Shown here: positions 8,432 through 38,123 of the stretch, piece after piece
Position numbering within the stretch: position 1 is the first letter of the stretch
Layout: each line of letters opens with the position of its first letter
NCBI GenBank assembly: GCA_964462045.1
Contig: CAYWWB010000004.1
Span: 1 to 39,689, forward strand
Length of the DNA stretch: 39,689 nt
Source of the DNA: Candidatus Woesearchaeota archaeon
GTDB taxonomy: Archaea > Nanobdellota > Nanobdellia > Pacearchaeales > GW2011-AR1
Reading direction: 5' to 3'
Notes under the pieces: generated by a model
What the model saw: the letters and a program-made list of their open reading frames with translations, nothing else
Told to the model about the DNA's origin: nothing
Databases searched by the model: none
Made by a program: the position numbers and the translations under genes

Positions 8432-8857
8432 ATGGACGAAAAAAAAGAGGAAAAAACTTGTGAAGGTTGTGCAGGTTTATGTTGTAAATATGTGTCTATT
8501 GAAATAGATGTTCCAGAAGAAATAGATGATTTTGAAGATATTAAATGGTATGTTATACACAAAAATGTAAATGTGTATGTTGATGAAGATGATGAGTGGT
8601 ATGTTGAATTCCTAACACCCTGTGAATATGTAAGGGAGGATGGGAAATGTTCTATTCATGAAGATTTTACTAAAAATCCTGAAATAAAACGTCCTAAAAT
8701 ATGTAAAGAATATTCTACAGATGAGTGTCCTTTTTATAATAAATATAAAGAAAAATATACATTCAAAAACATTCATGATGTTGAAAATTATATTGAAAAC
8801 GTCTATAAAAAAGGAAAACATATAATTCCTGAAGACGAAGATGAGGATGAAGAATAA
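8432..8857 (+). CDS. YkgJ/UPF0153-type CxxCxxCC zinc/iron-chelating domain protein with acidic tail
   Basis: N-terminal CEGCAGLCCKY matches the CxxCxxCC signature. Further conserved Cys residues (TPCEY, GKCSIH). C-terminal EDEDEDEE. Confidence 0.65.
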   Translation: MDEKKEEKTCEGCAGLCCKYVSIEIDVPEEIDDFEDIKWYVIHKNVNVYVDEDDEWYVEFLTPCEYVREDGKCSIHEDFTKNPEIKRPKICKEYSTDECPFYNKYKEKYTFKNIHDVENYIENVYKKGKHIIPEDEDEDEE

Positions 8858-8858
8858 A

Positions 8859-11390
8859 TTATTGTTTTTCTATTTTTAAAATTTTCATAATCCCTTTTGT
8901 AGCAAAAATACTTACTATAAAAGTTATGATAGTCCCTCCAATTAAAATTAGCCAAGGAACTATTCCTAAAGGTGTTAATTCAAATAAGTTATTCATGGGG
9001 GTATATATTATAACTAATTGTAAAATCAAAGAAACTCCCAATGCAATCAAAAGTAGTTTGTTTGAAAACCATCCTTGTTTTTCCCTGTATCTAATACTCC
9101 CTATTCTTACAAATTCAAAAAGTATTAAACCTGTAAATAAGGTAGTTCTTGCAATGTTTTCTCCAAATAAACTATTTGTTAAAAAGAAAGTTCCCAATAA
9201 AGTCAAAACAATTATTGAACCAATAATCAAAGTAAGATAAGTGAGTTCTTTGTTTATTATTCCTTCTGATTTATTTCGGGGTTTTCTTTTCATAATGTTT
9301 TTAGAAGGGGGATCAACACCTAAAGCTAAAGCAGGGAATCCGTCTGTTAATAGATTTACCCAAAGAAGTTGTACTGGGAGTAAAATAGGATATTCTAAAG
9401 TTAAAAATAATGTTGCAATCAAAATTAACATAACTTCTGCAAAATTACTTGTCAAAAGATAATTAACAAATTTTCTACAGTTATCAAAAATTCTCCTCCC
9501 CTCCTTTACACCTAAAACAATATTAACAAAATTATCATTTAATAAAACAATATCTGATGCTTGTTTTGCTACATCTGTCCCTTTTTTACTCATTGAAACC
9601 CCTACATCAGCCATTTTCAATGCAAGAGCATCATTTACACCATCTCCAGTCATAGAAACAATATTCCCTTGATTTTTCAATATCTTCATTATTCTTAATT
9701 TATGTTCTGGAGAAAGCCTTGCAAAAACATTTACCTCATTATTTAGTTTTTTAAAGAGTTTTTCATCATCCATATTTTCCAAATCATTCCCTACCAAAAC
9801 CTCTCTTGTTTTAAGGCCTATTTCAGAAGCGATTGCTTTTGCTGTTTTTGGATTGTCACCTGTTAACATTAAAACTCTTATTCCTGCTGTCTTACATTCT
9901 TCTAATGCTCCTTTAACCCCTTTCCTTACAGGATCACTTATTCCAGTCAAACCAATCCAAATAAGCTCTTTTTCAATATCTTTCTCATTAATAGAATCTT
10001 CTATATTTTTATATGCAAATCCCAATACTCTCAAAGCTCTTGAAGAAAATTCATCATTTTTATCTAATATTCTCTCCTCATCTTTTTTTGTTAATTTTCT
10101 TATTTTTCCATTCTCAATAATCTTGTTACATTTTTTAATTAAAACTTCTGGTGCTCCTTTGGAATAAACCGCAGATTCTTTGTTGTTTTTAATTACAACA
10201 GACATCATTTTCCTCTCTGAAGAAAAAGGTATTTCATTTGTTCTTTTGTATTTTTTTTCTAAATCTTCCTTATTAAAATCAAAATCTTTTCCAAAATTAT
10301 ATAATGCTACTTCTGTTTCATCTCCAATAAGTCTTTTTTTTCCTTTTAATTTATGAACATCATTATTTAAAACAGAACAATAAAGTAAATTTCTAATTTG
10401 ACCTTTGTCTAATTCTCCAACCCCATATTCTTTATCTAAATAAACATCTGTAACCGCCATCTCTCCCCTAGTCATTGTTCCGGTTTTATCTGAACAGATA
10501 ACATTTACTGAACCTAAAGATTCTGTTATTCCTAACTTCCTTACCAAAACTTTCTTCTTCATCATTGCTTTTGCACCTAAAGCCAAACTCAAAGTTATAA
10601 CAGCGGGAAGCCCTTCTGGAACTGCTGCAACAGCCAATGCAACTGCAGTTAAAATAGATTGATATAATGAAAATTTGAATAAACCCACAATTAAAACTAA
10701 AACAGCTATTCCTAAAACTATCCAAGATAATTTTTTACTTAAAACAGACATTTCCCTATAGAAAATGGTTTTTTCCTCTTCCATTGAACCTAATTTCTCT
10801 GCAATAGAACCTATTTTTGTTTTCATCCCTGTAGAAATAACTTTTGCAACAACATTTCCAATTGTTAAATAAGTGTTCTTATAAATTTCCTCTCCTGGTT
10901 TTTTTAAAACTGCACTTGATTCTCCAGTTAAAGCGGATTCATCAAATTTTGCCTGAGAACTTTCTAAAATTTTTGCATCTGCAGGAATCACATCCCCTCC
11001 AGAAAGGACTATTATATCGCCAGGGACTATTTTTGAAGAATTTATTATTTTTTCTTCTCCATCCCTAATAACTCTTGCCTTGGGTTGGGACATCTTTTGA
11101 AGAGCTTCTATACTTTTTTCAGCTTTATAATCCTGAAAGAAACCACTTAATGCTGAAGCAATAACAATTACCAAAATAAGAATTATGTCTATTAGATTAT
11201 TCTCTGGAGAATATTTTGTAATTAGGGTTAATATAATAGCTGCCACTAATAAAATGAGAATTAAGGGGGATTTAAATTGAGATAAAAGAATTTTCCAAGG
11301 AGAAACTTTCTTCTTTCTCTCAAGAACATTCTCACCATATTTTTCAAGTCTTTTTTTTGCCTCTTTTTTTGAAAGCCCTTTTTTATTCAT
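8859..11390 (-). CDS. Cation-transporting P-type ATPase, P2A (SERCA/Ca2+-ATPase-like)
   Basis: Motifs TGES (LTGESSAV), PEGLP, phosphorylation site CSDKTGTMT, KGAPE, TGDN, GDGVNDALALK. About 10 hydrophobic segments. Confidence 0.92.
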   Translation of the reverse strand: MNKKGLSKKEAKKRLEKYGENVLERKKKVSPWKILLSQFKSPLILILLVAAIILTLITKYSPENNLIDIILILVIVIASALSGFFQDYKAEKSIEALQKMSQPKARVIRDGEEKIINSSKIVPGDIIVLSGGDVIPADAKILESSQAKFDESALTGESSAVLKKPGEEIYKNTYLTIGNVVAKVISTGMKTKIGSIAEKLGSMEEEKTIFYREMSVLSKKLSWIVLGIAVLVLIVGLFKFSLYQSILTAVALAVAAVPEGLPAVITLSLALGAKAMMKKKVLVRKLGITESLGSVNVICSDKTGTMTRGEMAVTDVYLDKEYGVGELDKGQIRNLLYCSVLNNDVHKLKGKKRLIGDETEVALYNFGKDFDFNKEDLEKKYKRTNEIPFSSERKMMSVVIKNNKESAVYSKGAPEVLIKKCNKIIENGKIRKLTKKDEERILDKNDEFSSRALRVLGFAYKNIEDSINEKDIEKELIWIGLTGISDPVRKGVKGALEECKTAGIRVLMLTGDNPKTAKAIASEIGLKTREVLVGNDLENMDDEKLFKKLNNEVNVFARLSPEHKLRIMKILKNQGNIVSMTGDGVNDALALKMADVGVSMSKKGTDVAKQASDIVLLNDNFVNIVLGVKEGRRIFDNCRKFVNYLLTSNFAEVMLILIATLFLTLEYPILLPVQLLWVNLLTDGFPALALGVDPPSKNIMKRKPRNKSEGIINKELTYLTLIIGSIIVLTLLGTFFLTNSLFGENIARTTLFTGLILFEFVRIGSIRYREKQGWFSNKLLLIALGVSLILQLVIIYTPMNNLFELTPLGIVPWLILIGGTIITFIVSIFATKGIMKILKIEKQ

Positions 11391-11438: not shown

Positions 11439-12308
11439 ATGAAAAAAGGAGATAAAACGATTTTAAATAAAACAGGGCAACTGGATTGTTTTTCATATTA
11501 CAAAAAGATTTTTAGAAAAAAAAGAAAGTTTTTGAAAAAATTTTTACAAGATAAAGAGATAGCCACAAAAATCTACCTTCCAAAAGATGATTTTTATTTA
11601 GTAAAGAGGGGTTCAAAAGAAGAGCCATTATATTTTCCTGAGATAAAAACTTCAAAAAATTTTCTTTCATTAAGAAAAGATAATGATTTAAGTGATGTTC
11701 GAGATAAAATTTCAAAAAAAGAGGAGAAAATATGGCATTATTTTGTTCCAAGAAAAATGATTGAAATGCATTATGCTTGTAATAAAGAAAAAGGAAACAA
11801 AATAAATCGGATTTTTATAGATATTGATCCAGGGGAAAAATTTAAAGCAGAAACAGGAAGAAAAGTAGCTTTAGAACTATTAAAAGAAATTAAAAAAGAT
11901 AAAGATTTTAGAGAAAAATTTAATTTTAAAACAGAGGTTATTTGGACTGGTAAAGGATTTCATGTTTATATAATATTAAAAAAAGAACATTCAAAAAAAA
12001 TTTACCAAAGATATTTTTCCTGGGAAGGAAAAAAGGAAAGTTTTATTGAAAAATGGGCTAAATCTATTTCAGAATCTATTGGATTTAAGGTAGAGGCAGG
12101 GCATGAAAGGAAAAGAAACAAAATTATCTTAGATACCTCTGCTACACCTCCCGGAAAGCTTGCTAGATGCCCTTATTCTTTACATTTGAATGAAAAGGGA
12201 AAATTAGTTGGAATTTGTGTTCCTTTGAAAAAGAAAGATTTAGAAAACAATAATATAGTTAGAAAATTAGAAAATTTAAATTTGAAAAAAGTAATTAAAG
12301 AATATTAA
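11439..12308 (+). CDS. Archaeo-eukaryotic primase (AEP) superfamily protein, PriS / LigD-Pol-like, compact
   Basis: Motif I IFIDIDPGE, motif II VIWTGKGFHVYI, motif III ILDTSATPPGKLARCPYSLH. ATG at 11439 is preferred over 11424 because the TATA box at 11410..11417 lies only 6 nt from 11424. Confidence 0.65.
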   Translation: MKKGDKTILNKTGQLDCFSYYKKIFRKKRKFLKKFLQDKEIATKIYLPKDDFYLVKRGSKEEPLYFPEIKTSKNFLSLRKDNDLSDVRDKISKKEEKIWHYFVPRKMIEMHYACNKEKGNKINRIFIDIDPGEKFKAETGRKVALELLKEIKKDKDFREKFNFKTEVIWTGKGFHVYIILKKEHSKKIYQRYFSWEGKKESFIEKWAKSISESIGFKVEAGHERKRNKIILDTSATPPGKLARCPYSLHLNEKGKLVGICVPLKKKDLENNNIVRKLENLNLKKVIKEY

Positions 12309-18962: not shown

Positions 18963-20411
18963 TTATCTGTTTAAATACCAATTTATTCCTAAACCATATT
19001 TAAAATCTCCAGATTTGCTTTTTTCTCCAAGCCCGGTTTCATATTTTACATTTCCTTCTACTGAAAAACTACTATTATCTTTTCCAGGAAAATACTCTAT
19101 TCCTGCAGAACCTGTAAAAGTAACTTCTTTTCCTAAATTTTTAATATAATTATCTCCTTCTCCATTACCTATCTCAAGTCTTGTTGAATCAACCACATTT
19201 CCATTTGCGTCTTCTGATATTATGTCTGTTGATATCTCCCCTTCATATTGTTGTTTAACATTTCTATAAGTCAATCCAACTTTTCCCTCCAATCCAAAAC
19301 TGTTTGAAATCATTCCGTTAAAACTAATTCCTGCTCCCCATTCATAATTTTGATACATAGGAGTTTTAGTAACATCTTTATTAGTTATAGCATATCTAGT
19401 TGTATCTCCTTCTTTATATAGAGGTTCTTTTTCTTGTTGAAGACTTTCATTTGTAGGTTTTCCTAAATTCCATGTATTATTTTGGTTCCCTATATTATAT
19501 GATATAAAAGGCCCTATTGAAAGATTTTCACTTCCAAATCCCAATGTAAAAGAAGCTTGTCCATAAAGATTGTCTCCAGCTACTACCCCATCAACATCTA
19601 ATTTTGGTTGGAACCAGCTTAAATCAAAATTCCTATTTCCACTTCTCTTCTTACTTTTATCATCATAAGGAGAATAAAAATTATCTTCTTCTACTTCAAC
19701 AATTCCTTGAACTTCACCAGTTGTAGGTTCTATTAAGTCATATTTTTTGGGATAATCTGAGTTTAAAATTCCTTCAAGATTTCCTCTTGATTTTTCTTTA
19801 TCAACTTTCCATCCCCAAATTTCATCAGTTTGAACATAATAGTTTTCTCTGTTGTCTGTTACACCAATTTCTTGAACATCATCTTTGTATGCCCAAACAA
19901 CATTTTGTTTTTCTCCATTTCCTGAAGGTTGGTGAAAATAATAAACTGTATCATTTATTCCGTCACTTCCTTTTATAACGAGTGTCTTAAATAAATTTGA
20001 GAAATCTTTTGTTTTAATTTCTAATTTATCTCCTTGAAAATCTAAGTTTTTTGTATCATATTGAGGAGTAGCATCTTCTGGTTTTTTTGCAAATTGACCA
20101 GAATTATTTAATATAATTCTATTTCCTTCAATTTCATAAGGAGAAAATACAACACTAGGTTTATTACCATTCATTTTACTAACAGGATATTTTTCAATTC
20201 CCAAAGGATTATCTCTTGATTCTTTAATTTCTTTAAAAGCGTAAACAGTTCCATGTTCCATGATAGCTTCTTGAGTTTCACTACTTCCCACAGAACCAGA
20301 TTGAGTAAAATCAACATCTTGAGCTTTAACATTAGGTGATAAAGCTGTAAGAGCTGCTAATCCTAAACCTCCTAAAAGGCTTTTGAATTTGTTTGTTTTT
20401 TTGTTTGTCAT
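18963..20411 (-). CDS. Secreted 482-aa protein whose C-terminal half looks like a transmembrane beta-barrel (OMP-like)
   Basis: Signal peptide FKSLLGGLGLAALTALSPNVKA/QD. C-terminal half has alternating Gly/aromatic-rich strands: YGQASFTLGFGSENLSIGPFISYNIG, YEWGAGISFNGMISNSFGLEGKVGLTYRN, VTFTGSAGIEYFPGKDNSSFSVEGNVKYETG, and terminal FKYGLGINWYLNR. Confidence 0.75.
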   Translation of the reverse strand: MTNKKTNKFKSLLGGLGLAALTALSPNVKAQDVDFTQSGSVGSSETQEAIMEHGTVYAFKEIKESRDNPLGIEKYPVSKMNGNKPSVVFSPYEIEGNRIILNNSGQFAKKPEDATPQYDTKNLDFQGDKLEIKTKDFSNLFKTLVIKGSDGINDTVYYFHQPSGNGEKQNVVWAYKDDVQEIGVTDNRENYYVQTDEIWGWKVDKEKSRGNLEGILNSDYPKKYDLIEPTTGEVQGIVEVEEDNFYSPYDDKSKKRSGNRNFDLSWFQPKLDVDGVVAGDNLYGQASFTLGFGSENLSIGPFISYNIGNQNNTWNLGKPTNESLQQEKEPLYKEGDTTRYAITNKDVTKTPMYQNYEWGAGISFNGMISNSFGLEGKVGLTYRNVKQQYEGEISTDIISEDANGNVVDSTRLEIGNGEGDNYIKNLGKEVTFTGSAGIEYFPGKDNSSFSVEGNVKYETGLGEKSKSGDFKYGLGINWYLNR

Positions 20412-20726
20412 TTTTATTGTTTTTTTGAATTTTTTAATCTTTATAAACCTTTTGGTTTGTTGTTATTGAAAGGTTTAAACACTTTTGTGTTATTGTAAAA
20501 TAGTTAATTACAACTACTTTATAAATTTTTCGGTTTTTAACTATGATTAAGTAAAAACAAAATTTCAGAGTTTTTTCGAATATAAAAATATTTGTATTAT
20601 TTAAGATATGTGTTTTTGTCGTCAATAAAAAAATAAAAAGAAAGATAAATTCATTGGGTGTCATCAGGAAATCAAAAAAAGGAAAACATTTTCTGGAAGG
20701 GTTGTTTTGTAGTATATTAATTAGGG

Positions 20727-20916
20727 GGTTCTCGTTTCATTTGGATTTCTTTTAGGAAATACGGATGAATGGAAATCTCTGATTTACTTTTTGTCTAATC
20801 TTTTTTTGAAAAAGATCTTCATGGTAGGTTCTCGTTTCATTTGGATTTCTTTTAGGAAATACGGATGAATGGAAATCTCTGATTTACTTTTTGTCTAATC
20901 TTTTTTTGAAAAAGAT
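20727..20916. repeat. Two perfect 90-bp direct copies (20727..20816, 20827..20916) separated by a 10-nt spacer
   Basis: ggttctcgtttcatttggatttcttttaggaaatacggatgaatggaaatctctgatttactttttgtctaatctttttttgaaaaagat occurs twice with a period of exactly 100 nt. Each copy ends in the palindrome atcttttt..aaaaagat. Confidence 0.95.
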
Positions 20917-20930
20917 TATTTGAAAGATAC

Positions 20931-20949
20931 ATGCGCGAGCCGGGATTCG
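20931..20949 (-). other. Orphan 19-nt copy of the tRNA-Gly 3' end (T-loop to discriminator, plus 1 nt); att-like scar
   Basis: atgcgcgagccgggattcg at 20931..20949 is identical to 21036..21054 in the intact tRNA-Gly, in the same orientation, 87 nt downstream of the gene. Confidence 0.85.
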
Positions 20950-21036
20950 TGCGAAAAGCAAGTTTTCGCGTCATTCGCTAAAATCAAAGATTTTATCAAA
21001 TGAAACTCCGTTCGAATCCCCTATTTTTTTGCAGAA

Positions 21037-21107
21037 TGCGCGAGCCGGGATTCGAACCCGGGCCACATCGTTGGCAACGACGCATTCTACCACTGAACTA
21101 CTCACGC
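21037..21107 (-). tRNA. tRNA-Gly(GCC)
   Basis: Minus strand reads GCGTGAG-TA-GTTC-AGTGGTA-GAAT-G-CGTCG-TTGCCAA-CGATG-TGGC-CCGGG-TTCGAAT-CCCGG-CTCGCGC-A. Full cloverleaf, anticodon GCC, no encoded CCA, no intron. Confidence 0.95.
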
Positions 21108-21126
21108 TTTTTAATAATAAAAGAGA

Positions 21127-21756
21127 TTATTTGGTTTTTTTAAAATATTCTAATAAAGAAATATATGTCTTAGGATTTTTAGAATGTAATTCTCCTTTGT
21201 CCCAAGGGATATTAGATGTTTTTAAAATTCCATCTGCATTTACATTTCTTATTAATGTATTATAATTACTAATGTTTTCTTTTGTTAAAAAATATGCTGA
21301 ACCTTTAACCCCTTTTGGAATTTCTGCTAAATAAACTTGTATTTTTTTGTCATGCAAGTCATTTACAATATTTTGAAGTGATTTTTTTATTTTATAATCT
21401 GGTGCCCACCTACTATTAGTTCCTTCAAAAAGAATAATCTTATTTGAATTTACTTTTTTTAATTCAGAAATTACACTAGGCAATTCATTTTCAATATTAA
21501 AAATTGTTCTTCCCTCATATGAAAATTTATCGCAGTTTTCACACCCCATCATATCTGAATTAGTGATATCACTATCTTCAATAATAATATTTTCTAATTT
21601 TTGGTTGTTTTTTGTTAAATAATTATTCAAAGCAACTATATGTGAATTTCCAAGAACAACAGCGGGTGAGATTTTTTTTGTTTGTTGAGAATGTAAATTA
21701 TAATTAATACCTAGTGTCAAGGTTAATGCGAGCAGTGTGTTTGCTATCTTTCCCAT
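21127..21756 (-). CDS. Secreted 209-aa protein (weak SGNH/GDSL-hydrolase-like resemblance) lying between two tRNA genes
   Basis: Signal peptide MGKIANTLLALTLTLGINYNLHS. VVLGNSHIV and ILFEGTNS are loosely reminiscent of SGNH blocks I and III. The ATG is 2 nt after the tRNA-Val 3' end; the stop is 19 nt before the tRNA-Gly 5' end. Confidence 0.65.
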   Translation of the reverse strand: MGKIANTLLALTLTLGINYNLHSQQTKKISPAVVLGNSHIVALNNYLTKNNQKLENIIIEDSDITNSDMMGCENCDKFSYEGRTIFNIENELPSVISELKKVNSNKIILFEGTNSRWAPDYKIKKSLQNIVNDLHDKKIQVYLAEIPKGVKGSAYFLTKENISNYNTLIRNVNADGILKTSNIPWDKGELHSKNPKTYISLLEYFKKTK

Positions 21757-21758
21757 AA

Positions 21759-21831
21759 TGGACCCGGCAGGAATCGAACCTGCGATCTTCTCGGTGTAAA
21801 CGAGATGTCATAACCCCTAGACCACGGGTCC
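21759..21831 (-). tRNA. tRNA-Val(UAC)
   Basis: Minus strand reads GGACCCG-TG-GTCT-AGGGGTTA-TGAC-A-TCTCG-TTTACAC-CGAGA-AGATC-GCAGG-TTCGATT-CCTGC-CGGGTCC-A. Anticodon TAC, no encoded CCA, no intron. Confidence 0.95.
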
Positions 21832-22025
21832 ATGTTTTTGTTAGACCCGTTCAAAAAACCTTTTGGTTTTTAGTTGTTTCGTCTTTCCATCATTTGAAGC
21901 GGAAATCCAAAACAGACCACGGGTCCATGTTTTTGTTAGACCCGTTCAAAAAACCTTTTGGTTTTTAGTTGTTTCGTCTTTCCATCATTTGAAGCGGAAA
22001 TCCAAAACAGACCACGGGTCCATGT
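21819..22025. repeat. Perfect 95-bp tandem repeat (2 full units plus a 17-nt third copy) that includes the first 13 nt of tRNA-Val and its upstream leader
   Basis: Units at 21819..21913 and 21914..22008, partial copy at 22009..22025. Each starts with agaccacgggtccatgt, the reverse complement of acat+GGACCCGTGGTCT. Confidence 0.95.
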
Positions 22026-22140
22026 GTTTTTTATTAAATATTTAATAAAGTTGTAACTTTTAAAGTTTTTCTTTATAAAAAAAGTTATCTAAAAGATAGT
22101 GATAACAACATTTAAAAATAAAAAGTAATTTATTTAATGC

Positions 22141-23982
22141 ATGGTTAACGATAAAAATAAAATTCCTGGAATGGAATTAAATGACACTAAAAAATATTCT
22201 AATTCTCAAACTTCAACATCTCCAGAAAATAATCCTAATGGTTCTGTTTCGCAAGGAAATTCTCAACAAAACGAAGAACAAAAAAAAGAAAATGAAAGAA
22301 TAAAAAAGATAATGGAAAAATTAAAAAGCACTATTTTAGAAAAATATTCTTTTATCCAATCAATAAGTATTTTGCCTCCTCAATCAATTAAAGTTTTCAT
22401 AGATGAAGAAGAAGTCCCAAAAGAAACTGAAAAACACCACCACCTAAATATAGTTGTTCCAGATAAAAAAGAAAAAAAATTGCCTGAAATAAAGAAAGAC
22501 ATTGTAAAAGAAATTGAAAAAACTAAAGAGTATATTTGGTTACATTTAAGGACCCCTCAAGAAATATGGGGAATTTGTTTGGATTCAAAATTTGAAATTT
22601 TTAGTGCTATTGCTATGTCATATCCATTATATGATAAAGGAATTTTAGGAGCTATGAGGGTCACAGAAATCCATAAATCAATGGTTTTACAAAAATTTGA
22701 CAAATATGTTGTTTCTTATGTTTTAGGCGGAAGTATGATAAGAGGAGAAGCAAAAAAAACTTCTGATATTGATGTTTTCTTAATTATTAATGATACTGAT
22801 GTTAAAAGAATGCCTCGTTTGGAATTAAAAGAAAGATTAAGAGGAATGATTTATCAATATGTTAGTGAAGCTATGGGAATGGCTGGAGTTAAAATGCAGT
22901 TAGAACCTCAGATTTATTTATTAACTGATTTCTGGGAAGCAATGAAAGATGCTCACCCAGTAATGTTTACTTTCATTAGAGATGGTGTTCCAATTTATGA
23001 TAGAGGAACTTTCATGCCTTGGAAATCTTTATTAAATATGGGTAAACTTAAACCAAGTCCTGAAGCTATTGATATGTTTATGTCTATGGGAGACAATACA
23101 AGAAAAAGAATTGAAAGGGCGCAATTAGATTTAGTTGTAGGAGATATTTATTGGGGAACCATAACTCCGAGCCAGGCTTTATTAATGCTTTATGGAGTTG
23201 CACCTCCTTCGCCAAAGCAAGTTGTTCCTGAAATGAAAAAAATATTTGTTGAAAAAGAAAAAATGCTTGAAAAAAAATATATTGACATCCTAGAAAAAAT
23301 TGTTATTAAATATTATAAGGGGTATGAGCACGGGAAAGTAAAGAAAGTTTCAGGTAAAGAAGTTGATATGCTTTTAGAGGAAATGGAAGAATACAATAAA
23401 AGAATGAAAGAGTTAAGAAAACAAATTGAAAAAAGAACCGATGAAAGAACCATTGAACAATTCTACAAAGATGTTTTTGAATTATTGAAATCAATTTTAG
23501 GGAATAAAGCAAAAGAAAAAATAGTTGAAGAATTTAATAAAAAAATGGTAAAAACAGGAAAATTTTCTCCCCAACATTTGAGGATTTTAAAGAACATTGT
23601 TAAAGCAAGAGAAGAATTCAAAAAAGGGAAACTTGATACTCATAGAGTTCATCAAGCAAGAAGAGAATCTAGAACCCTTATTAATGATTTAATAGAATAT
23701 TCTCAAAGATGTGAATTAATGCCTTTAGAAAAAGGGAGATTTTATTTGAAATATAAAGAGAAAGGCAAGGAAAAAAATGCTGAATTATTAAGTTACAATG
23801 GAAAAGCATTTTTATTAAAACAAAATGAAATCAAGAAAATAACAAACAAAATTGAAGAATCAAATCTTGAAGAAATTAATAAAGAGGCTGAAAAACAAAA
23901 AAGTAAAAAGGAAATTGAATTAAAACCAGAAGTATTTAAATTAATAAAGAAAGAACTTGGAAATTATGAAATTGTTCTTTGA
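22141..23982 (+). CDS. Large (613 aa) Pol-beta-superfamily nucleotidyltransferase-domain protein with helical C-terminal extension
   Basis: NTase signature LGGSMIRGEAKKTSDIDVFLIIND. The downstream helical block GKLKPSPEAIDMF...YWGTITPSQALLMLYGVAPPSPKQVVPEM is paralogous to ORF 26780..27742. Long Lys/Glu-rich coiled tail. Confidence 0.8.
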   Translation: MVNDKNKIPGMELNDTKKYSNSQTSTSPENNPNGSVSQGNSQQNEEQKKENERIKKIMEKLKSTILEKYSFIQSISILPPQSIKVFIDEEEVPKETEKHHHLNIVVPDKKEKKLPEIKKDIVKEIEKTKEYIWLHLRTPQEIWGICLDSKFEIFSAIAMSYPLYDKGILGAMRVTEIHKSMVLQKFDKYVVSYVLGGSMIRGEAKKTSDIDVFLIINDTDVKRMPRLELKERLRGMIYQYVSEAMGMAGVKMQLEPQIYLLTDFWEAMKDAHPVMFTFIRDGVPIYDRGTFMPWKSLLNMGKLKPSPEAIDMFMSMGDNTRKRIERAQLDLVVGDIYWGTITPSQALLMLYGVAPPSPKQVVPEMKKIFVEKEKMLEKKYIDILEKIVIKYYKGYEHGKVKKVSGKEVDMLLEEMEEYNKRMKELRKQIEKRTDERTIEQFYKDVFELLKSILGNKAKEKIVEEFNKKMVKTGKFSPQHLRILKNIVKAREEFKKGKLDTHRVHQARRESRTLINDLIEYSQRCELMPLEKGRFYLKYKEKGKEKNAELLSYNGKAFLLKQNEIKKITNKIEESNLEEINKEAEKQKSKKEIELKPEVFKLIKKELGNYEIVL

Positions 23983-37933: not shown

Positions 37934-38123
37934 CAAATTGTCCGAAGGACTAAGAACCCCTCAAAGTAAATGAAAAATTTGGGTGTAACGAAGTGAAACC
38001 TTTTATCGTTTGTTAAGCGAAATTTTCCCAAAATTTCGAGAGAGTTTTTTTGGTTCGATAAAAGAAGTTTTTCTATTTTTGTCGAAGACAAAAACTATCT
38101 GTGCGTAGCACTAGCGCGCTTCT

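Follow-up and report, generated by a model that had tools for sequence, protein, structure and literature searches.

What produced the repeats downstream of the tRNA-Gly(GCC) gene in the genome of a Candidatus Woesearchaeota archaeon (GenBank assembly GCA_964462045.1)? In the window, i.e., the whole 39,689-nt stretch of contig CAYWWB010000004.1 that was analysed here, the 3' end of the intact tRNA-Gly gene recurs downstream as an orphan copy, two 90-nt units stand just beyond the orphan, and on the other side of an open reading frame (ORF) a tRNA-Val(TAC) gene is accompanied by 95-nt units that repeat its head. tRNA genes are classic landing pads for mobile DNA, and the initial annotation, which was made from the letters alone, took the orphan for the crossover core of a tRNA-targeting integrase and the locus for a recombination hot spot or the remnant of one integrated element. 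We arrive at a different answer. It is proposed here, at a probability of roughly 0.6, that miniature hairpin modules without genes, ~50–110 nt each, are stacked downstream of tRNA-Gly(GCC), and that there is a lineage-specific family of such miniature duplicative hairpin inserts at tRNA gene ends, which are not scars of attachment (att) sites. The mechanism of their insertion is possibly new.

The genome that contains the window (G000) has 721 kb in 49 contigs with 28% GC, is estimated to be 89% complete and contains the archaeal markers L10e and Kae1. It was compared within its genus with the congeners G001 and G002, the three being metagenome-assembled genomes (MAGs) that are 80–89% complete, and with G326, a genome from another genus of the same family. 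The tRNA genes were called with ARAGORN with introns allowed, giving 33 in G000.

The insert at tRNA-Gly

Read outwards from the tRNA-Gly gene, the locus is composed of the following features.

21037–21107, minus strand: tRNA-Gly(GCC), intact, with no encoded CCA (ARAGORN; Rfam tRNA, 68.4 bits)
21036–21054, minus strand: gene-side copy of the 19-nt direct repeat CGAATCCCGGCTCGCGCAT, from T-loop C56 through the discriminator plus 1 nt (repeat search, sequence)
21022–21035, minus strand: linker TCTGCAAAAAAATA, 14 nt, its start resembling the tRNA-Glu and tRNA-Lys linkers (ttct...)
21010–21021, minus strand: anti-T GGGGATTCGAAC, an inverted T-loop/T-stem copy (sequence)
20970–21006, minus strand: 36-nt hairpin GTTTCATTTGATAAAATC-TTT-GATTTTAGCGAATGA(C), palindromic subfamily
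20951–20969, minus strand: second hairpin, 19 nt, 7 bp, GCGAAAA-CTTGC-TTTTCGC (fold)
20931–20949, minus strand: orphan copy of the tRNA-Gly 3' end, CGAATCCCGGCTCGCGCAT, 19 of 19 nt identical (repeat search)
20917–20930, minus strand: trailer remnant tGTATCTTTCAAATA, the left part of the usual tRNA trailer hairpin (trailer comparison)
20827–20916, plus strand: 90-nt unit, copy 2, with core hairpin 20832–20880 and a T7-run hairpin 20897–20916
20727–20816, plus strand: 90-nt unit, copy 1, with core hairpin 20732–20780 and a hairpin with a T7 run

The inner copy of the 19-mer is part of the intact tRNA-Gly gene and the outer copy is the orphan, with 86 nt and no ORF between them. Three observations of the initial annotation are borne out at this point: the last 18 nt of tRNA-Gly plus 1 nt do recur in the same orientation at 20931–20949; the 7-bp hairpin at 20951–20969 is present; and the second T-loop-like box seen at 21008–21022 is real, being the inverted T-loop copy that we call anti-T, with 11 of its 12 bases exactly reverse-complementary to tRNA-Gly positions 53–63. 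The 36-nt hairpin has its outer stem in common with the core hairpin family described below. When the insert and the orphan are folded as one strand, a three-way junction is predicted (minimum free energy −29.7 kcal/mol, z −2.5), where a continuous 8-bp stem of anti-T and orphan closes around both hairpins.

It is noted that an intron at 55/56, with the orphan as the true 3' exon, was considered and rejected, because there is no bulge-helix-bulge (BHB) motif and because the tRNA is complete without the orphan, scoring 68 bits as a tRNA. The trailer remnant tGTATCTTTCAAATA was compared with the uninterrupted trailers tgtatcttttcaaaaaagatacactacaaa that directly follow tRNA-Gln, tRNA-Trp and tRNA-Leu; beyond the orphan what seems to be the trailer hairpin is interrupted by the next module, the 90-nt unit. 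The two 90-nt units are identical in the assembly and lie 10 nt apart, and ~90% identical copies occur on contigs C11 and C5 of G000. With Rfam 15 only the two tRNAs of the window were matched at the gathering score, the matches at a permissive threshold lying far below it.

The mirror-image layout at tRNA-Val

The features on the other side of the ORF are as follows.

21127–21756, minus strand: ORF of 209 aa, 2 nt after the tRNA-Val 3' end and 19 nt before tRNA-Gly
21759–21831, minus strand: tRNA-Val(TAC) (ARAGORN; Rfam)
21819–22033, minus strand: 95-nt units, 2.3 copies (two plus a partial third), the two full units at 21819–22008

Each 95-nt unit begins with the first 13–14 nt of tRNA-Val, and this head is followed by the core hairpin, a second hairpin, the anti-head GAACGGGTC (at 21844–21852 and 21939–21947) and a linker. 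The layout is the mirror image of that at tRNA-Gly, i.e., orphan head, hairpins, inverted head copy, linker and gene, and in the predicted fold of the unit the orphan head is paired to GAACGGGTC around the core and second hairpins (z −4.9). The sole visible TATA-like sequence at tRNA-Val lies upstream of the outermost orphan head.

The covariance model of the hairpin matches the plus strand at 20732–20780 and 20832–20880 with 47 bits each and the minus strand at 21863–21919 and 21958–22014 with 63 bits each. The weak inverted resemblance that had been noticed between the left and right arrays is thus real, with the model matching both on opposite strands, and it arises because the 90-nt and 95-nt units share one hairpin family; in this sense the two flanking arrays are related to each other. 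The 209-aa ORF between the two tRNA genes has no match in Pfam or NCBIfam; an ORF in the same position is present in the congener G001, the DNA of the region being ~84% identical.

The same layout at tRNA genes throughout the genome

The arrangement at tRNA-Gly is one instance of a pattern. In G000, 18 of the 33 tRNA genes have a copy of their own last 17–23 nt located 70–290 nt downstream. Where the base preceding the repeat is informative, most of these orphans begin at T-loop C56, and this holds alike for CGAATCC, CAAATCC, CAATTCC, CGAGTCC and CGATTC; two other insert families have orphans starting at about 53 and 58. The duplication thus has an inner end that stays in the T-loop and an outer end that varies. 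The interval between gene and orphan is nearly always made up of a linker of 2–45 nt, an inverted copy of the T-loop and 3' T-stem of that same tRNA, a hairpin of about 17 bp that is conserved, and a spacer. At the 5' end, five tRNAs have the mirror layout, with an orphan head of 13–25 nt that ends in the D-arm and an inverted copy of part of that head; tRNA-Val of the window is among the five.

The inverted copies are specific to their own tRNAs. Over 16 loci the longest exact complement has a mean of 9.1 nt with the own tRNA versus 6.1 nt with other tRNAs, a value as high being reached in 0 of 5000 permutations. In the 'ggag-linker' subfamily, position 63 is the exact limit of the complementarity in Gly, Glu, Lys and Leu. 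Moreover, rare T-loop variants are tracked by the inverted copies, as in the following three cases.

tRNA-Asp: T-loop TTCAATT, inverted copy GGAATTGAA
tRNA-Ser: T-loop TTCGATT, inverted copy GAATCGAAC
tRNA-Glu: stem CTC, inverted copy GAGATTCGAAC

Every orphan is located near its own gene (within ~290 nt), next to a related tRNA or at the end of a contig. Away from the tRNA loci no tRNA fragment was found in G000, barring chance matches to AT-rich intron sequence, and for no orphan was a distant partner site or cargo found. The orphans at tRNA-Gln(TTG), tRNA-Arg(TCG) and tRNA-Ser are decayed. At the T-loop junction there is no consistent microhomology, and the 3' ends of the modules differ (TTTTTTT, TTTTGT, GAGGCC, TTCGCA). 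The earlier claim that the orphan is a direct repeat starting in the T-loop is supported by these data, the repeat being derived from the target, and so is the claim that the site is a hot spot of rearrangement.

An unrelated insert family, ggaggaattaataattaatcaaatcaaagg...gagtga, which is without the core hairpin, is present downstream of tRNA-Glu(CTC) at 38034–38121 of contig C3 in G000, where it forms two tandem units bracketed by the last 17 nt of tRNA-Glu. As this unrelated family is also bracketed, the duplicating process is not tied to one hairpin sequence.

The hairpin family

With nhmmer, ~40 copies of the hairpin are found in G000. Alignment of 31 distinct copies supports a hairpin of 15 bp that has a single bulged T and a G.A mismatch that is conserved; 92% of the cells are paired versus 39–51% with slid partners, in seven pairs both bases have changed, and G.U pairs are confined to one strand. 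A palindromic sister subfamily, to which the 36-nt hairpin at tRNA-Gly belongs, has ~10 further copies with 91–96% identity, most of them close to tRNA genes; its outer stem is that of the core family, its apical stem is different, and the changes seen in the inner stem are compensatory. On contig C6 a mosaic copy combines the outer stem of one subfamily with the apex of the other.

The copies are concentrated at tRNA genes: 29 of the 40 are found no more than 400 nt from a tRNA, in a zone that makes up 4% of the genome. Among the near-tRNA copies, 22 are downstream on the tRNA strand and 5 are on the opposite strand. The copies occur in both orientations and in tandem and mosaic clusters. Four copies are remote from tRNAs, most of them where a protein gene starts, and these are bracketed by direct repeats of the flanking DNA, of which three are exact (24–32 nt) and one is decayed.

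Two known structures were considered and rejected. A K-turn in the hairpin is not supported: the conserved G.A mismatch is present, but its flanks, as judged by eye in the alignment, depart from the K-turn consensus; and a guide RNA of the C/D-box or H/ACA type directed at the T-loop is not supported, since by eye no boxes are rightly placed and no Rfam family is matched.

Distribution and turnover

The model has 43 hits in G000 and 20 and 16 in the two congeners, and 38 other genomes of their family and order have none. A wider search with stricter filters, through a sample of 400 genomes of the class, gave hits in just one other genome, which belongs to another genus of the same family; in all, ~435 further genomes of the class had no hit. 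In G326 (L042, ~1500–1640), tandem core-like hairpins lie at the start of a protein gene with 14-nt duplications: each hairpin is preceded by the same 14-nt piece containing the start codon (atatttgctttcat), so that each unit amounts to a short ORF with a stop that overlaps the ATG following it.

The alignment with relatives that had been suggested for this locus was run, and an empty tRNA-Gly site was found in G001. This genome is syntenic with the window locus, with 81–84% identity over two matched stretches (~84% over ~820 bases), and its tRNA-Gly lacks the orphan, the 87-nt insert and the 90-nt units; an ordinary spacer of ~50 nt follows the gene, versus ~430 nt in G000. At tRNA-Val, G001 has one unit plus the orphan head versus two units in G000. 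Thus, with the tRNA-Val array present in G001 and the tRNA-Gly inserts not, each side arose in events of its own and at a different time, and the view that a single excised or decayed element had bracketed the tRNA-ORF-tRNA module is not supported. The anti-head follows a change in the tRNA-Val acceptor, with ACGGGTC matched by GACCCGT in G000 and ACGAGT matched by ACTCGT in G001.

Other orthologous tRNAs also differ in occupancy. At tRNA-Gln(CTG) and tRNA-Arg(CCT) the modules are different in G000 and G001, and at tRNA-Asp the inverted copy and the hairpin are common to both. The modules have therefore been gained, lost and replaced within the genus. At the same two tRNAs another difference is seen: tRNA-Gln(CTG) (G000 contig C3, 38486–38617) has a 57-nt and tRNA-Arg(CCT) (contig C23, 5841–5963) a 44-nt anticodon-loop intron in G000, and neither has one in G001, so that tRNA introns have been gained or lost within the genus.

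Support from read-derived contigs

The stretch 20400–22200 was queried in the Logan contigs of three metagenome runs (X1–X3), which contain 92–96% of its sampled words. A 956-nt contig at single-copy depth spans 20893–21848 in the three runs, with 0 differences in two runs and two in the third, and takes in the orphan, the insert, tRNA-Gly, the ORF and tRNA-Val. The 95-nt unit is on a 112-nt contig at ~2x the flank depth, as expected for two copies. A ~95% relative in run X4, which is from a different study, has the same orphan-insert-tRNA arrangement.

The earlier statement that there are two identical 90-nt units is correct for the assembly, but for the second copy the read-derived contigs give no confirmation: its junction (20817–20826) is in no contig of the three runs at ≥99% identity. 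The left-flank contig continues unbroken through the 90-nt unit to 20812 (long contigs, three runs), and the sole contig across a similar junction has 2 different bases and belongs to a 47-nt-period array without the core hairpin. Because the junction is missing from the read contigs, the second 90-nt copy may be a product of assembly.

A 76-nt cyclic read-contig at ~3x depth contains a 47-nt tandem unit, ttgtctaatctttttttgaaaaagat cttcatggtg agttctcgttt, which corresponds to 20790–20836 of the window and to the ends of contigs C36 and C5 of G000. This 47-nt unit is the 90-nt unit minus its 53-nt hairpin part, the 'empty' version being flanked by TTT only.

It is also noted that runs of N stand in or beside hairpin modules at six tRNA loci (contigs C1, C6, C7, C12, C21 and C23) and that many contigs of G000 terminate at tRNA genes, so that the modules are evidently what breaks the assembly.

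Search for a mobilizing enzyme

The only tyrosine recombinases in G000 are two XerA-like genes, 40% identical to each other, which are on contigs other than that of the window. At least two Xer-like genes are equally frequent in relatives without the hairpin family; a second XerA paralogue as the dedicated enzyme was rejected, since its presence does not track the family. On contig C24 of G000 (11.8 kb), which with 23.8% GC is the lowest-GC contig, an XerA-like recombinase lies at 8690–9178, ~2.6 kb from a tRNA-Leu (11775–11842) that is truncated by the contig end, and an element truly integrated at tRNA-Leu may be present here.

No Y1 transposase and no TnpB above the cut-off is present in G000, DDE transposase families not having been searched, and PF01797 (Y1/RAYT-type) has no match in G000 or G002. 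An IS200/IS605 or RAYT origin was rejected on this absence from G000 and G002. The IS200/IS605 and RAYT elements make no target duplication. RVT_1 (PF00078) and Cas1 were likewise absent from G000, G001 and G002, with the control genomes positive in both searches. With no Cas1, a casposon-like or Cas1-type insertion was rejected, and so was a CRISPR-like array, the units moreover not being of repeat-spacer form. For an autonomous parent, the core hairpin pattern gave no match in viral or JGI metagenome contigs, the pattern used there being of type 1, which does not match the 87-nt insert's own hairpin.

In G001 the ~2-kb contig C108 (L036) contains an IS200/IS605 Y1 transposase of 153 aa, an IS4-like transposase fragment of 233 aa and, running off the contig end, a group II intron protein's C-terminal maturase motif. 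The best hairpin match on this contig, at 17.5 bits and E 0.06, is not convincing, and the contig may be mis-binned.

A possible mechanism of insertion

Five features call for an explanation by any mechanism: the inner end of the duplication, which is fixed in a tRNA loop; its variable outer end; the inverted target copy between gene and hairpin; the dispersed, conserved hairpin; and an enzyme that is nowhere visible. Based on the proposed reading as duplicative hairpin inserts, the following pathway is favoured. Insertion would start with a break of the sense strand inside the T-loop or, in the 5' layout, inside the D-arm, at a point left unpaired when displaced single-stranded DNA or the transcript takes up a tRNA-like fold. 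It would then be completed by copying with template switches, and this copying would leave a product with a fixed inner end, a variable outer end and an inverted copy of the target, with no element-coded enzyme being needed. Finally, the inverted copy would pair with the orphan to give a closed three-way junction, in which the spare piece would be sequestered while the tRNA would remain usable.

Two considerations bear on this pathway. The breakpoints in the T-loop and the D-arm are sensible only if a tRNA-like fold matters, which points to single-stranded DNA displaced where a gene is heavily transcribed, or to RNA itself; and since the closed fold would stop the spare piece from competing with the real tRNA, it may be why the insertions are tolerated. 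In the most general form, we suggest tentatively, and with more doubt than belief, that the DPANN archaea may harbour an undescribed duplicative insertion at single-stranded loops of tRNA genes that requires no enzyme encoded by the element and builds self-closing, target-derived structures (target piece, linker, inverted piece, hairpin, target piece), e.g., by template switching at R-loops that is coupled to replication or transcription.

Template-switch (quasi-palindrome) mutations and the DUP-INV-DUP products of replicative template switching have reportedly been treated by Ripley and Lovett, by Loytynoja and Goldman and by Carvalho et al. The likeness is that here, too, a direct-inverted-direct triple (X, X', X) stands within ~150 nt, the inverted copy extends a hairpin stem and no dedicated enzyme would be needed. 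By contrast, the template-switch products copy local sequence only, whereas here a dispersed conserved hairpin is located between the copies at more than 16 loci.

Several points weigh against the proposed reading. Firstly, at some loci (on C10, on C5 and at tRNA-Ser of G002) the duplication contains the inverted copy, which fits nested events or unequal recombination as well as a primary insertion. Secondly, the 47-nt and 90-nt units differ by the 53-nt insert with its TTT flanks, which points to a target duplication that is very short or lacking, and there may thus be more than one way in which the modules spread. Thirdly, the strand-specific G.U pairs, the T-runs and the conservation could reflect a selected RNA function instead of mobility. 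Fourthly, template switching by itself leaves the transfer of the hairpin from locus to locus unexplained. In addition, an enzyme gene could be missing from MAGs that are 80–89% complete, and a trans-acting enzyme missed in these genomes is possible; the 2-kb contig of G001 does carry the IS200/IS605 TnpA together with the IS4-like and group II intron maturase fragments. Lastly, the read-derived contigs contain no intermediate, no excision product and no within-sample empty site.

Alternative explanations

One alternative is that the modules are functional RNA elements that act at transcript ends or in processing or stability, in the manner of repetitive extragenic palindromes (REP) and bacterial interspersed mosaic elements (BIME), or that they give trailer-derived small RNAs, with the orphan and the inverted copy forming a processing stem. 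In its favour are the covariation with strand-specific G.U pairs, the fact that most copies are downstream of a tRNA and on its strand, the T-runs with which modules end and the stable three-way-junction folds; in addition, the anti-head co-varies with the tRNA-Val acceptor between G000 and G001. Against this, presence or absence and module type differ at orthologous tRNAs within the genus, copies stand in both orientations, orphans have decayed at tRNA-Gln(TTG), tRNA-Arg(TCG) and tRNA-Ser, and neither an Rfam family nor, by eye, C/D or H/ACA boxes were found. We consider it unlikely as an account of the locus. It is compatible with the proposed reading as inserts, because a spreading module can also act as a terminator.

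The same elements invite comparison with transposable elements of the miniature inverted-repeat type (MITEs), REP, BIME and mycobacterial interspersed repetitive units (MIRU). These, too, are lineage-specific gene-less hairpin families with dozens of intergenic copies in mosaic or tandem arrangement, for which a role as transcript-end structures is possible. The differences from MITEs are that no terminal inverted repeats of the element's own were found, the only inverted pair (anti-T and orphan) being derived from the target, and that the target duplications are long, from 19 to ~55 nt, of no fixed length and with a strong preference for the tRNA T-loop and D-arm. In the searches of G000, an incomplete genome, for Y1 transposases, TnpB and PF01797, no parent insertion sequence or RAYT was found, and the PF01797 match in G001 is not flanked by hairpins.

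A second alternative, and the one from which the initial annotation set out, is that a tyrosine-recombinase element integrated into the T-loop of tRNA-Gly, supplied a replacement 3' end and later shrank to 87 nt, with the 19-mer as its att core. The repeat does run from the T-loop to the gene end, as in attL and attR of many tRNA-targeting elements, and G000 has two XerA-like recombinases, of which the one on C24 lies ~2.6 kb from a truncated tRNA-Leu. More widely, the SSV-type and pNOB8-type att sites and those of genomic islands, which are located at archaeal and bacterial tRNA genes, resemble the locus in having a tRNA 3' repeat from the T-loop, an intact gene and a displaced partial copy outside. 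By contrast, the inserts here are gene-less, 70–290 nt long and have a separate repeat for each of 18 tRNAs while sharing a hairpin family; the outer boundary of the repeat is variable; the inverted copy of the target is not an att feature; and no integrase gene or remnant is present within or beside the repeats. There is no cargo and there are no distant partner repeats, the hairpin copies away from tRNAs have comparable duplications, at least two Xer-like genes are as common in relatives without the family, and the scans of viral and metagenome contigs were negative for the type-1 core hairpin, a pattern that misses the hairpin of the 87-nt insert. It is thus very unlikely that the 19-mer is an att core, and with 18 of 33 tRNAs having the same layout with their own 3' ends, and with no distant partner, we do not retain the interpretation as the crossover core of an integrase.

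Xer recombinases are also known to integrate folded single-stranded DNA, as in CTX-phi, and integrons have attC hairpins. Similar to these, the locus has, ~90 nt apart, two inverted target-like sequences whose folding can imitate the target site, hairpins with conserved mismatches, and Xer-like recombinases in the genome. The differences are that no replication or cargo genes are present here, that the element would need the acceptor strand of each tRNA, and that the recombinase content does not track the hairpin family.

A third alternative is retro insertion, where a small hairpin RNA with a U-run end is reverse transcribed at a nick in the T-loop, giving variable duplications similar to those of short interspersed elements (SINEs). 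The variable duplication length with one fixed end, the T7 that many modules have directly before the orphan, the breakpoints in tRNA loops that are exposed only in folded single strands, and the group II intron maturase fragment on the small contig of G001 are in accord with it. However, RVT_1 is absent from the three genomes with the controls positive, several module types have no terminal T-run (ending in ...GAGGCC or ...TTCGCA), and the inverted copy of the target would be left unexplained. The duplications vary in length, and a T7 tail occurs in some module types and not in others. We hold this explanation to be highly improbable.

The least probable explanation is that of an assembly artefact, with the repeats made by mis-joining of short-read contigs through the repeated hairpins: the missing 90-nt junction in the contigs of three runs, a graph that fits one copy, and the many MAG contigs that end at tRNA genes agree with it, but the orphan, the insert and tRNA-Gly stand together on the 956-nt single-copy contig in three runs, the ~95% relative from a different study has the same arrangement and G001, G002 and G326 have the same layout, so that an artefact can explain the second 90-nt copy only.

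Implications

No description of this architecture turned up in a literature search. The archaeal tRNA genes are oddly fragmented, being interrupted by introns at many positions, split or permuted, and the cause is unsettled; disrupted, split and intron-bearing tRNA genes are known from Nanoarchaeum, Caldivirga and Caldiarchaeum. The inserts resemble these in that partial tRNA pieces stand beside genes in small archaeal genomes, with breakpoints in the D- and T-arms, in which non-canonical introns are found too. The difference is that here the tRNAs are complete without the orphan, the orphan junction has no bulge-helix-bulge and the orphans decay.

With more than half of the tRNA genes of G000 having inserts that are anchored in the T-loop or D-arm, each with a spare and an inverted copy of a tRNA piece, and with gain and loss visible within the genus, the disruption of tRNA genes, and its tolerance by the cell, can be studied live in this lineage. 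The modules can mislead annotation, where they may be taken for att sites, integrated elements or split tRNAs, and they break short-read assemblies at tRNA genes. If the more general suggestion of an undescribed kind of insertion is true, the inserts could be the raw material for non-canonical tRNA introns, long leaders and split tRNA genes.

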